From an uncultured delta proteobacterium (GTDB taxonomy: Bacteria; Myxococcota; Myxococcia; Myxococcales; Myxococcaceae), in the NCBI GenBank assembly GCA_963771175.1, contig CAVYSY010000001.1, forward strand, positions 160,001-224,000: 64,000 nucleotides of DNA. Reading direction: 5' to 3'. Each line of letters starts with the position of its first letter. Positions within the stretch are counted from its first letter, which is position 1. Of this stretch, positions 16,101 to 28,473 are shown piece by piece. The notes beneath the pieces are model-generated. The model did not search any database. It was given only the letters and a program-made list of their open reading frames with translations, and was not told the DNA's origin. Position numbers and translations under genes: made by a program.

Positions 16101-18855
16101 GATTGCAGGTGCTCCAGCGCGGCGAGCTCATCGGGCGAGGCGGCGGCGGCCTGGGCCACCAGGGCCTCGAGTTCGGCCGCCGGCGTAGCGAGGGCAAGGG
16201 TCGACACCACGAGGCACGCCATGCCCTCGATGGTCGGCTTCTCCAGGAGCTCCTGAAGGGGGAGCTCGACCCCCAGCCGCTCGCGGAGGCGTGAGACGAG
16301 CCGAGTCGCCATGAGCGAGTCGCCTCCCAGTTGGAAGAAGTTGTCGTGAACCGACAGGCGCTCGAGGCCCATGATCTCGTGCCACGCCGCGGCCACCTCG
16401 CGCTCCAGGGGCCCCCGGGCATCGAGGCAGCCGGTGAAGGCCGGCGCTAGCGCCTCGGGGTGATGAGGCGCTCCCGCCTCTGCGGCCGGGCGACGCGCCA
16501 CCCAGTGCGGCTCGGGCTCGAAGTCGTAGGTGGGCAGGGGCACGCGCCGCGGCGGCCCGGCGTGGATCGTGCTCCAATCGGGCGTGGCTCCCAGGCACCA
16601 GGCCTCGCCGAGCGCCCCGAGCAGCGACGCCACCTCCCCTTCGCCCGGCTCGAAGCCGCCCACCGTGCGCGCGTCGATGCGCCGGGCCGACTCCGAGGTG
16701 GCCCCGACTTCGACAACCATCGCGCCGGAGGCCTTCAGCGCTTCGAGGCCCTCGGCGACGCGCGCCGGTCGGGTGAGGTGCGCGACCCACGAATCGGCCG
16801 AGGTGGCCTCCTCGGCGCTCATGGCTCGTCCGGTGAGGGTGGAGACGATGGGGATTCGCGGGGCCGAGAGGACGGCGGAACGCAGACGCCCGCGGAAGCG
16901 CTCCACCAACGCCTCTGCGGCCGGGCCGGCCCCCACGGACTCGACGAAGTGAGCGCGGGCTGCGGTGAGCGCCACCGCGTCGTCGAGGGACAGCACGCCA
17001 GCGAGGCAGGCCGCCACGTACTCACCCACGCCCGACCCCATCAGCAGCGCCGGAGTCACGCCGCGCGCCATCCACCAGCGGGCCGTGGCGTACGACACCG
17101 CGAAGAGGGCGACGTCACCGAGCGCCGGAGCGGGGCTCGGTGCGAAGGCAGCGGTAGAGAGCTCGCCGCCCCCCGCCTTGGCGTGCGCTCGGGCGCAGGC
17201 GTCGAAGGCCTCGCGGAACGCGGGCTCGGCGCGGTACAGCCGGGCGCCAGCACCCGGCCGCCGCTCTCCCGAGAAGAGGAATGCCACCTTGAGCCCCGTC
17301 TCCTGCGCCTCCACCGGCGCCTGCGGCCTGGCGAGGGCGGTTGCCGCTGCGCGAGGGTTCTCGGCCACCACCGCTCGCCGGAAGCGGAACGGGTGGCGCC
17401 CGGCCTGGAGCGTCCAGGCGACCTCGCGGAGGCCCACCGGGGTGCGCTCGAGGTGCGCCGCCAGCTTCGTCGCCGCCGCCTCGAGGGCGCGAGGAGTGCG
17501 TGCCGAGAGGACGAGCAGCTGCGGGCCGGCGGGCGCGGCCGTCACTTCGCGTCGGGGCGCCTCCTCGAGCACCACATGCGCGTTGGTCCCTCCGAAGCCG
17601 AAGCTGCTCACCCCGGCGAGCCGGCGCCGGGTTCCCCGCGGCCAAGGCCGGAGCGTCGCGTTGACGTGCACCGGGCTCGAGGCGAAGTCGATGCGCGGGT
17701 TGGGCGTGTCAAAGCCCACGCTGGGGGGAGCTCCTCGTGCTCGAGCGCGAGGACCGTCTTGAGCAGGCCGGCGATGCCCGCCGCCACGTCGAGGTGGCCG
17801 ACGGCGCCCTTCACCGAGCCGAGCGCGATGGTGCCCCGGCGGCCGCTCGGGCGGCCGAGAGCCTTCTTGAGCGCTTCGATCTCCACCGGATCTCCCAGCG
17901 CCGTGCCGGTCCCGTGGGCTTCGATGTAGTCGAGCTCGTCGGGCCGCACGCCGGCGACCGCGAGCGCCTCGGAGACGACGGCCGCCTGGCCATTGACGGC
18001 CGGGGCGGTGAAGCCCACCTTGAGGTGCCCGTCGTTGCCGATCGCGGTGCCGCGGATGACGGCGCGGATCGGATCGCCGTCCTTCACCGCGTCGGCCAGG
18101 CGCCGCAGCACCACCACGCCGAGGCCGCTGCCGAAGACGGTGCCGCTCGCCTTCGCGTCGAAGGGCCGGCAGACGCCGTCGGTGGCGAGGATGGATCCGT
18201 CCACCGCCACATAGCCCGCCCCCTGGGCGAGGTTGATGGACACGCCGCCGGCGAGAGCCACGTCGCACTCCTGATTGAGGAGGCTCTGGCAGGCCAGGTG
18301 CACCGCCACCAACGAGGAGGAGCAGGCGCTCTGCACCGCGAAGCTCGGGCCGGTGAGGTCCAAGAGGTAGCTGACCCGCGTGGCGAGCGAGTCGTTGATG
18401 TTGTTGACGAAGACCTGCAGCGCCCCGGCACCGTGGCTCTCGGGCCGGCTCATCAGGTTCAAGAGGAGGTAGTTGCTGGTGGTGGCTCCGGCGAAGACAC
18501 CCGCGGGCTGCGGGGCGCGCCGAGGGTCGATGCCCGCGCTCTCCAGCGCCGCCCAGGCGACCTCGAGGAAGAGGCGCTGCTGGGGGTCCATCTCCTCCGC
18601 CTCGCGGGGGCTCAGGCCGAAGAAGGCGGCGTCGAAGAACTCCTTCCCCTCGAGCGGCGCGGCGACCGGGACGAACCTCGCGTCGCCCCTGAGCCTCTCG
18701 TTCACCTCGAGCGCCTTGAGCTCCTCGGGCGACAGTCGGCGGATGGCCGAGCGCCCGGCGCGCAGGTTGGCCCAGAAGGCGCTGAGATCCGCCGCGCCTG
18801 GGAAGCGCCCGGCCATGCCGATGAGGGCGATGTCGGGACCGTTGGCATCACTCAC
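16097..18855 (-). CDS. PKS module KS-AT*(degenerate)-ACP; one frameshift in a G-run at ~17722
   Basis: KS QSACSSS/HGTGT/GHL intact in ORF 17608..18867. Continuation GVSSFGFGGTNAH...GGDSL lies in ORF 16097..18268. AT motif is GSGVG instead of GHSxG, with an internal deletion. GTG start at 18855 follows GGAG. Confidence 0.9.
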
Positions 18856-27800: not shown

Positions 27801-28473
27801 CGGGTGGAGCACGTTCCCGATGAGGCCCATGTCGTGGTACAGCGGCAGCCACCCCACCACCTTGGAGTCGGGCCGCGTGCCGAAGGCGCGCTGGATGAGG
27901 CTCTGGTTGTGGAGGAGGTTGCGGTGCGACACCATCACGCCCTTGGGGCTGGCGGTGGAGCCCGAGGTGTACTGGAGGAAGGCAATGGCCTCGGCGTCCA
28001 GCGCGGGGGGCGTCCAACGCTCGGTCCAGCTGCCGTCCAGGGTATCGGTGGCCAACCACCGCAGTGGGCGGTGATCAGCCATGAGCTGCTCGCCCACGGC
28101 ACAGACGGCCTCGGTCGCCAGCGCATGGGCCGGCTCGGCGTCCTCGATGATGGACAAGAAGCGGGTGAGCGGCCGGTCGAGGCGAGGCGGGTAGACCGGC
28201 ACCGCCACCGCTCCGGCGTAGAGGCAGCCGAAGAAGCCCGCCACGTAGTCGAGACCGGGTGGGTAGAGCAGGAGCACCCGCTCGCCCGAGGCGCCCTGGG
28301 CCATGAGCCTCGCGCCGATGTCTCGGGCCTGGGCATCGAGCGCCTGGTAGGTGAGGTTCACCTCACCCTCACCACCGTCGAGGAGAAATGTGTAGGCCGT
28401 GGCCTGGGGGTCGGTCGGCTGCGCGGGAGCGGAGCAGTTCGACCAGGGTCTGGGCGTGAAGATCTGAGCTCAT
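18848..28473 (-). CDS. Hybrid FAAL-ACP-C-A-T-KS(Cys>Ser)-AT(malonyl)-KR-ACP; two apparent frameshifts (~28415, ~26890)
   Basis: ATG at 28473 (MSSDLHAQTLVELLR) shifts into DPQATAYTFLLDG; FAAL FLQYTSGST, CYGLAEATL; shift restores IAPRSIPKTSSGKIQR, which reads into ORF 18848..26800. ACP LDSL, C HHIVTDF, T GGHSL, KS QSASSTS, AT GHSLG/HAFH, KR GGLGGIG/YVAAN, ACP GGTSI. Confidence 0.9.

Follow-up and report, generated by a model that had tools for sequence, protein, structure and literature searches.

A colibactin-type route from S-adenosylmethionine to a cyclopropane is predicted behind a fatty acyl-AMP ligase in a myxobacterial megasynthase

Is the two-domain device that makes a cyclopropane from S-adenosylmethionine (SAM) in colibactin biosynthesis also used at the start of fatty-acid-primed assembly lines? 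This question is raised by a 64,000-nucleotide stretch of DNA from an uncultured delta proteobacterium (GenBank assembly GCA_963771175.1, contig CAVYSY010000001.1, positions 160,001 to 224,000 of the forward strand), the whole of which is referred to here as the window. It hosts a minus-strand megasynthase gene (Table 1) with a fatty acyl-AMP ligase (FAAL) followed by acyl carrier protein (ACP), condensation (C), adenylation (A), thiolation (T), ketosynthase (KS), acyltransferase (AT), ketoreductase (KR), and ACP domains. An initial annotation, made from the sequence alone, had proposed that its A domain and the KS behind it correspond to ClbH-A2 and ClbI of colibactin. Our analysis indicates that the gene is probably part of a FAAL-primed nonribosomal peptide synthetase (NRPS)-polyketide synthase (PKS) operon, in whose first extension module homologues of ClbH (C-A2-T) and ClbI (KS-AT) are fused and would provide a route from SAM to 1-aminocyclopropane-1-carboxylate (ACC).

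To our knowledge, the use of SAM as an on-line NRPS building block, together with cyclopropanation by a KS that has Ser for Cys, is known only from colibactin, a genotoxin of the human gut. According to the accessible portion of PMC10491745, SAM is loaded on ClbH and N-acylated, and ClbI then cyclises the tethered SAM; in ClbI, Ser178 takes the place of the Cys that KSs conserve, and the S178A substitution abolishes ClbI activity. In ClbH-A2, Asp235 is replaced by Ala, as stated in the accessible portion of PMC5490422.

The A domain of open reading frame (ORF) P0001, which has the sequence LPVTSLASASFVGEV, carries Ala758 at Stachelhaus position 235 in two alignments, one to LgrA made with HMMER and one of 51 A domains made with MAFFT. 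The ten code columns of the latter reproduce the code ASGSLGGICK that had been read by hand, with YGLTE in place of YGPTE, and the code of ClbH-A2 is identical to it at all ten positions. In a BLASTP comparison, the C-A2-T part of ClbH from E. coli Nissle 1917 and P0001 were 35% identical over 1093 aa, with ASASFVGEV and NGYGLTE conserved, and the A4-A5 region aligned to ClbH ungapped with 52% identity. All trees reported here are quick IQ-TREE runs without bootstraps. The A-domain tree (51 rows), in which the three A domains of the window NRPS and every one of the seven from clb were included, placed ClbH-A2 (a long branch), the window domain, and four relatives in one clade of six (SH-aLRT support of 96). 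The likeness to ClbH-A2, which the initial annotation had suggested, is therefore borne out by the code, by the pairwise identity, and by the phylogeny. In addition, 18 columns separate 79 members of the family from 90 other A domains, and the clade residue is found at 17 of them in the window and at 14 in ClbH-A2; among these signature columns, 758-762 are circular because the family set was defined by the SFVGE motif. By analogy with ClbH-A2, we infer that the window A domain loads SAM on the T domain.

The KS stands directly after the T domain of this module, with A-T-KS in one ORF. It reads IQSASSTS, with a Ser codon (TCC) at the catalytic Cys position, and the resulting Ser1328 falls in the alignment column of ClbI Ser178. 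Both KS His residues are present (ECHGTGT and NIGHLD), as are the GHSLGE and HAFH motifs of the AT, the KR's GGLGGIG motif with its catalytic Tyr, and the serines of the carrier domains (DSL/GGHSL/GGTSI), of which four were counted, as the initial annotation had described for the KS, AT, KR, and ACP. HAFH in an AT is linked to malonyl specificity. The AT of ClbI is given as HAFH in the accessible portion of PMC13691573. The KS-AT part of ClbI (E. coli Nissle 1917; BLASTP) and P0001 were 47% identical over 973 aa, with SSTSLVAV conserved. At the DNA level, a blastn search with the KS matched 288 of 5,426 complete E. coli genomes, and the 10 matches listed were all clbI, at 66% identity.

A Ser at this position is uncommon. 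When 972 KS envelopes were pooled, a motif pattern read 688 of them, with Cys in 669 and Ser in 14, and ten of the 14 lie in or next to the window's family (the window KS, ClbI, and eight other proteins). A search for A-T-KS homologues, which was dominated by large multi-module proteins, showed a Ser-type KS in 2 of the 120 proteins listed (P0092 and P0107).

Phylogeny places the window KS with ClbI and apart from Cys-type KSs, including the other clb ones. A tree of 49 rows comprised 6 distant Cys-type KSs as outgroup, 27 near Cys-type matches (two of which were not read by the motif pattern), P0322, four other clb KSs, the window's second KS, and nine Ser rows; in it, ClbI, the window KS, and seven other Ser-type KSs form a clade against 40 other rows (support 97.5). 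A second tree of 74 rows added 25 KSs from related loci (71 thinned at 85% identity), and here the 34 Ser-type KSs tied to a ClbH-A2-type A domain form one clade against 40 others (support 96). That clade has two parts: ClbI with four metagenome-assembled genome (MAG) loci that have no FAAL and no KR (support 100), and 29 FAAL/KR-type rows that include the window (support 95). Besides Ser1328, the residues L1237, H1286, V1290, F1389, S1431, and M1569 characterize the Ser clade; they are rare elsewhere, and ClbI has all of them. The other KSs mostly have Thr at 1389 (35/40), Gly at 1431 (33/40), and Ile at 1569 (26/40). Judged by these sequences, the window cassette belongs to a large sister group of ClbH/ClbI whose members are FAAL-primed.

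Two other kinds of Ser-type KS were also seen. P0322 has Ser at the catalytic position and its close sister P0323 has Cys, an independent change outside the ClbI-type clade. In addition, four giant PKS proteins (P0175, P0198, P0204, and P0254) have a first KS that reads IDTASSS[SA]LVA with Ser; the tree sets them apart as a separate, distant group (support 100), and they look like loading-type KSs unrelated to the ClbI clade.

We then asked how widely the two domains occur together. An ungapped 130-residue A4-A5 alignment (window, P0092, P0107, P0271, and ClbH) was used to scan 185,579 species, each represented by one genome; 562 stretches fitted two patterns and 165 loci were confirmed, and the counts given here rest on the best 80 of those 165. 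No genome locus exceeded 65% identity to the window in the A4-A5 region, and the genome of the window itself is not among the 80. Asp235 was absent from all 80 loci (Ala in 79, Ile in 1), and Ser occupied the KS catalytic position in every one of the 74 loci with a downstream KS on the same strand. Among the remaining six, five contigs end first, and in one (L066) no KS was found despite room. The loci with Ala at 235 include L064, L066, and L072, of which L064 and L072 have a Ser-type KS. Where the contig offered 4.2 kb or more upstream (68 loci), a FAAL was present in 63, and where it offered 7.5 kb or more downstream (66 loci), a KR was present in 61.

The hosts include Corallococcus (12 loci), Archangium (5), Pyxidicoccus, Vitiosangium, Citreicoccus, and Myxococcus, as well as many Thermoanaerobaculia, Holophagales, and other Acidobacteriota MAGs, Chloroflexota, Brevibacillus panacihumi and other Bacillota, and one MAG labelled Stenomitos. 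The head architecture was identical in the four loci examined with Pfam. The Corallococcus coralloides cassette is split after the T domain; that of Brevibacillus is split with ABC transporter genes in between; the Thermoanaerobaculaceae locus has a DUF5916 gene, a fused 3342-aa megasynthase, a KS-ACP protein, and then an NRPS, like the window; and the fourth locus is the Stenomitos-labelled contig. Since the downstream NRPS codes vary from locus to locus, a conserved head appears to be joined to varied peptides.

The window cassette thus shares with ClbH/ClbI the Ala235, the code, YGLTE, the KS Ser with both His, the HAFH AT, the C-A-T then KS-AT order, and membership in both clades. It differs in that the cassette lies on one polypeptide and has no ClbH-A1 domain, in that a KR follows the AT, and in that its acyl donor is predicted to be a FAAL-loaded fatty acid, whereas that of colibactin is the growing polyketide-peptide. 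A tblastn search of the window with 16 Clb proteins gave only generic NRPS/PKS domain matches, which leaves ClbP, L, M, D, E, F, G, and Q without a homologue there; a ClbS family did not come up when the window ORFs were scanned with Pfam (ClbS was not among the tblastn queries). Because these clb accessory genes are absent from the window and the line starts with FAAL-ACP instead of ClbN (which provides an N-acyl-D-Asn starter), this is not a colibactin cluster. Its closest counterparts are the cassettes of P0092, P0107, and L003-L082, which have the same domain order and are 56-78% identical to it in the A and KS domains. PLP-dependent (pyridoxal phosphate-dependent) ACC synthases, such as plant ACS and GnmY, make free ACC from SAM (PMC10491745, accessible portion); the chemistry proposed here would likewise turn SAM into this building block but, unlike theirs, on a carrier protein, and Pfam turned up no gene of the aminotransferase fold in the window ORFs that it was applied to. 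What is new here is the ClbH/ClbI device in a changed architecture, i.e., fused, FAAL-primed, and with a KR. We found no description of ClbH-A2/ClbI-type cassettes outside clb in the open-access literature (subscription papers, closed supplements, and MIBiG lie outside that scope), and within this same source the remark of the initial annotation that the cluster is not a described one holds.

The sequences establish the domain anatomy, the motifs, the homology, the placement in both clades, and the fact that the two unusual domains strictly occur together, and it is from domain order and homology that a fatty acyl-ACC, extended with malonate and ketoreduced, is predicted. Given its family, the FAAL would adenylate a fatty acid and load it on the first ACP. 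With SAM placed on the T domain by the A domain, the position of the C domain suggests that it would use the fatty acyl group to N-acylate the tethered SAM. By analogy with ClbI, the Ser-type KS module would convert the N-acyl-SAM thioester to N-acyl-ACC with loss of methylthioadenosine, and would then extend the N-acyl-ACC with malonate supplied by the HAFH AT, after which the KR would reduce the beta-ketone. A module consisting of KS, a degenerate AT, and ACP, an NRPS with three A domains (an epimerised Asn-like residue, then two more), and a thioesterase would complete and release the lipopeptide. More speculatively, an exported and translationally coupled N-terminal nucleophile (Ntn) acylase may later cut off the fatty acyl group.

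The initial annotation had described the cassette as fused behind a FAAL. The domain order agrees with this, and P0092, whose 3206 aa come from one ORF, bridges the second junction in alignment (tblastn; residues 22-534 in frame -3 with 68% identity, residues 527-3202 in frame -1 with 57%), but the gene as given is not one ORF, with frame changes in runs of C at 28401-28416 and 26876-26891. The FAAL frame closes ~35 codons after its ATG, and the FAAL resumes in a second frame; near 26880 this second frame degenerates, and the stop-to-stop frame of P0001 reads the FAAL C-terminal motif SIPKTSSGKIQR upstream of P0001's first start codon. Because the frame changes cut the domain, its NCBIfam scores are under the curated cut-offs. 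The megasynthase homologues are single ORFs of 3206, 3241, and 3342 aa. A third frame change lies in the second PKS gene, in the C run at 17716-17733. The gene thiC is normally intact, and the one at 61355-63257 (plus strand) of the window needs three frames (0, then 2, then 1), i.e., at least two frame changes. Since all three PKS frame changes sit in runs of 5-6 C and thiC also falls in three frames, the frame changes look like frequent homopolymer indel errors in the consensus and not like decay. Apart from them, the P0001 and NRPS ORFs are open over 2650 and 4131 codons, with a third-position G+C content (GC3) of 0.92-0.93.

Further irregularities lie downstream. The KS of module 2 has Cys and both His, and its AT (16898-17278, minus strand) is degenerate, with GSGVGE for GHSxG and without the usual GQGSQ; the Pfam AT profile matched at its positions 3-134 of 319. 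A Thermoanaerobaculaceae locus (L007:15923-18010) has a 696-aa KS-ACP protein without an AT at the same place. Right after the E (epimerization) domain of the NRPS there is a tandem C-C with no A-T in between (8700-11405, minus strand; NRPS residues 1566-2467), the first C reading FHHCILDGWS and the second MHHIVSDGWS, which could mean that a module is missing, that the assembly collapsed here, or that the pair has some special function.

Several observations weigh against the SAM-to-ACC assignment. The biochemistry of the ClbH/ClbI family is limited to its colibactin members, and even there the exact role of ClbI Ser178 is described as uncertain (PMC10491745, accessible portion). Many ordinary Cys-type KS-AT proteins are 53-61% identical to the window over KS-AT, that is, more than ClbI (47%), with ClbH at only 35%. 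When the nine best-separating columns were removed from the KS alignment, the free tree no longer joined ClbI to the window clade; the tree that holds the nine Ser rows together was then 3.8 log-likelihood units better, with a p-AU (approximately unbiased test) of 0.6. Moreover, H1358 and E1361 mark the FAAL-type subclade only, ClbI having Gly and Ala there, and details of the chemistry may therefore differ. Finally, with the frameshifts as given, the degenerate module-2 AT, and the tandem C-C, the line may not function in this strain. The window could encode a true ClbH-A2/ClbI homologue whose FAAL/KR subfamily does other chemistry, with a different substrate or with SAM converted to a product other than ACC (e.g., by gamma-displacement). 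This would suit a subclade that is sister to the ClbI subclade and not nested in it, that has its own H1358/E1361 signature and no known product, and in whose members nearest to the window position 235 varies (Ile in P0092 and L003, Val in P0107). We nevertheless consider it unlikely, since the window code matches ClbH-A2 at ten of ten positions, the KS Ser and six other signature residues are common to the window and ClbI, and the coupling of A domain and KS is kept in both subclades.

It is less probable still that the cluster is a decaying pseudogene cluster, in which the megasynthase and second PKS gene truly change frame and this strain makes no product. Three frame changes within 11 kb of PKS/NRPS genes, together with the degenerate AT and the C-C didomain, would fit such decay, but the position of all three in short C runs, the frames of thiC, the long open ORFs with their high GC3, and the AT-less counterpart in L007 argue against it. 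The idea that chance or convergence has put an inactive KS behind an NRPS module that is ordinary except for its unusual A domain can draw on the fact that single Cys-to-Ser changes do arise independently, as in P0322; yet it would have to account for a code that is identical at all 10 residues, for the support that the A and KS trees both give to the clade, for the co-occurrence in 74 of 74 loci, and the intact His-His pair, AT, KR, and ACP, and we regard it as very improbable. Collectively, the evidence favors a fused ClbH/ClbI homologue that would make ACC from SAM.

The window has a G+C content of 66-75%, and the cassette is part of a minus-strand gene run from ~30920 to 363, in which the start and stop codons of neighbours overlap or abut. 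The genes follow in the order DUF5916/CBM9 protein, megasynthase, second PKS gene, NRPS, thioesterase, and acylase (Table 1).

Table 1. Positions of the genes and domains discussed, in window coordinates
Feature	Coordinates	Strand	Remarks
TetR-family regulator	31524..32108	-	upstream, co-directional; Pfam
DUF5916/CBM9 protein, signal peptide	28470..30920	-	3' end at FAAL start codon
Megasynthase gene, FAAL-ACP-C-A-T-KS-AT-KR-ACP	18848..28473	-	three frames as given; Pfam, frame reading, tblastn of single-ORF homologues P0092/P0107 over second junction
FAAL domain	26868..28473	-	start ATG 28473; best PDB and NCBIfam matches are FAALs (FadD23/28/32, PRK05850); upstream ORF P0002 is an AMP-binding domain (Pfam)
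ORF P0001	26800->18848	-	2650 aa; Pfam order ACP-C-A-T-KS-AT-KR-ACP; Pfam residue spans C 104-555, A 578-1042, KS 1157-1532, AT 1674-1996, KR 2264-2457
First ACP, predicted fatty acyl acceptor	26546..26761	-	Ser in LDSLQ at 26648-26662; Pfam PP-binding (3 stretches in P0001)
Condensation domain	25136..26491	-	PF00668, E 2.6e-94; aligns with ClbH C domain
ClbH-A2-type A domain	23675..25069	-	Ala at 235 (GCC, 24527-24529); code ASGSLGGICK; NGYGLTE at 24245-24265
T domain	23396..23599	-	GGHSL at 23501-23515; Pfam
ClbI-type KS	22205..23332	-	Ser1328 (TCC, 22817-22819); His1464 and His1504 kept
AT of module 1	20813..21781	-	GHSLGE and HAFH
KR	19430..20011	-	GGLGGIG; K, S, Y present
Module 1 ACP	18974..19165	-	GGTSI; Pfam
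Second PKS gene, KS (Cys)-degenerate AT-ACP	16097..18867	-	two frames as given
NRPS, C-A1-T-E-C-C-A2-T-C-A3-T	3705..16100	-	4131 aa; Pfam; ATGA start/stop overlap with second PKS gene
NRPS A1 domain	13122-14627	-	Asn-like code
NRPS E domain	11490-12821	-	follows A1 module
Thioesterase	2750..3802	-	PF00975; overlaps both neighbours
Penicillin-amidase-family (Ntn) acylase	363..2753	-	PF01804, E 2.6e-224; ATG overlaps thioesterase stop

In the NRPS, the A1 code is DLT(T/R)VGEVGK, and the Asn domain of ClbN in the same alignment reads DLTAVGEVGK; because an E domain follows this Asn-like A1 domain, a D-Asn residue is predicted. The A2 and A3 codes are DLYSNALTYK and DAFALGGTFK. The acylase at the end of the run has a hydrophobic N-terminus, which is either a signal or an anchor. 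PvdQ-type Ntn acylases mature pyoverdine, and the window enzyme is like PvdQ in being a penicillin-amidase-family protein with an export signal that is encoded with a fatty-acyl-started NRPS line; the PvdQ model, however, matched it only weakly, at 81 bits where the cut-off is 950. An acylase homologue was found in 7 of the 80 related loci, whose fetched flanks end ~10 kb from the A domain.

At the other end of the run, the likely start of the DUF5916 protein, which carries a signal peptide, is at 30920. A DUF5916/CBM9 homologue stands directly beside the megasynthase in 27 of the 80 related loci (including L006, L007, L036, and L053), and the Thermoanaerobaculia loci resemble the window in having both this neighbour and a KS-ACP second module. 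An AlphaFold model built from 17 sequences was of moderate confidence (pLDDT 67, pTM 0.63), and the last 48 residues of the window copy, which reach past the end of the homologue alignments, are unmodelled. Its N-terminal sandwich matches CBM9 structures, with a template modelling (TM) score of 0.70-0.75, and its long antiparallel sheet resembles large outer-membrane barrels loosely (TM 0.26-0.43). As many such barrels match in this way, no specific transporter family can be named from the model. A role in export or uptake is our guess from the modelled fold.

With regard to the host, a 308-aa ThiC fragment of the window shares 97% identity with Archangium violaceum, A. lipolyticum, and one Archangium sp. 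record, and 96% with A. gephyra and Vitiosangium. By this marker the host is an Archangium-like myxobacterium, in line with the myxobacterial origin given in the initial annotation. In the KS tree, the window groups with P0107, P0092, and L003, next to Acidobacteriota, from which the nearest cassettes come, and outside the Archangium/Corallococcus subclade, and the DUF5916 neighbour occurs among the related loci mostly in Acidobacteriota. From these sequence comparisons, horizontal acquisition of the cluster seems likely. We also considered whether the window cluster is the usual Archangium one and rejected this, as the Archangium/Corallococcus KSs lie in another subclade and the best genome locus reaches only the 65% A4-A5 identity mentioned above.

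Taken further, these data may outline an uncharacterised family spread over several phyla, in which each product starts with a fatty acyl-aminocyclopropane head made on a carrier by colibactin-type SAM chemistry. In the window, the fatty acid would serve as a removable handle that the Ntn acylase cuts off outside the cytoplasm, freeing a 1-aminocyclopropyl group, and the cluster would have come from an Acidobacteriota-type lineage together with an outer-membrane-like DUF5916 partner. We put this combined picture forward tentatively and regard it as less likely than not. The two-domain device is in any case common in soil bacteria of the Myxococcota, Acidobacteriota, Chloroflexota, and Bacillota, and its setting differs from colibactin in that it stands at the start of fatty-acid-primed lipopeptide lines and is joined by a KR. 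This predicts a class of cyclopropane-bearing lipopeptides, none of which has been isolated so far, and Corallococcus, Archangium, and Brevibacillus panacihumi offer cultivable sources with related cassettes. The family also supplies many natural sequence variants for the study of ring formation by ClbI-type KSs, a step that the accessible portion of PMC10491745 presents as unresolved.

Some related cassettes have features of their own. The Archangium/Corallococcus version differs from the window in being split into two genes, in its code, ASGALGGVCK, and in its KS subclade. It was seen in 24 Myxococcota loci (12 from Corallococcus, 5 from Archangium, and others), i.e., L004-L005, L008-L009, L012, L015-L018, L020-L021, L025, L027-L034, L037, L045, L050, and L060, with FAAL-ACP-C-A-T followed by KS(Ser)-AT-KR-ACP and then by one further KS-AT-KR. 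The split cassette appears to be conserved across Corallococcus species, and no product was found for this Corallococcus/Archangium version. A MAG contig labelled Halothermothrix (L077:3778-20351) has ClbE-, F-, G-, H-, I-, J-, and K-like genes in order, at 33-50% identity, and from its sequence looks like a colibactin-like cluster; its KS lies in the ClbI subclade with L081, L064, and L072. In addition, ClbD/ClbE-like genes neighbour the cassette in L068 and ClbF/ClbE-like genes in L070 (Brevibacillus panacihumi), where the gene content gives a hint that some FAAL-type clusters may use aminomalonyl extender units.

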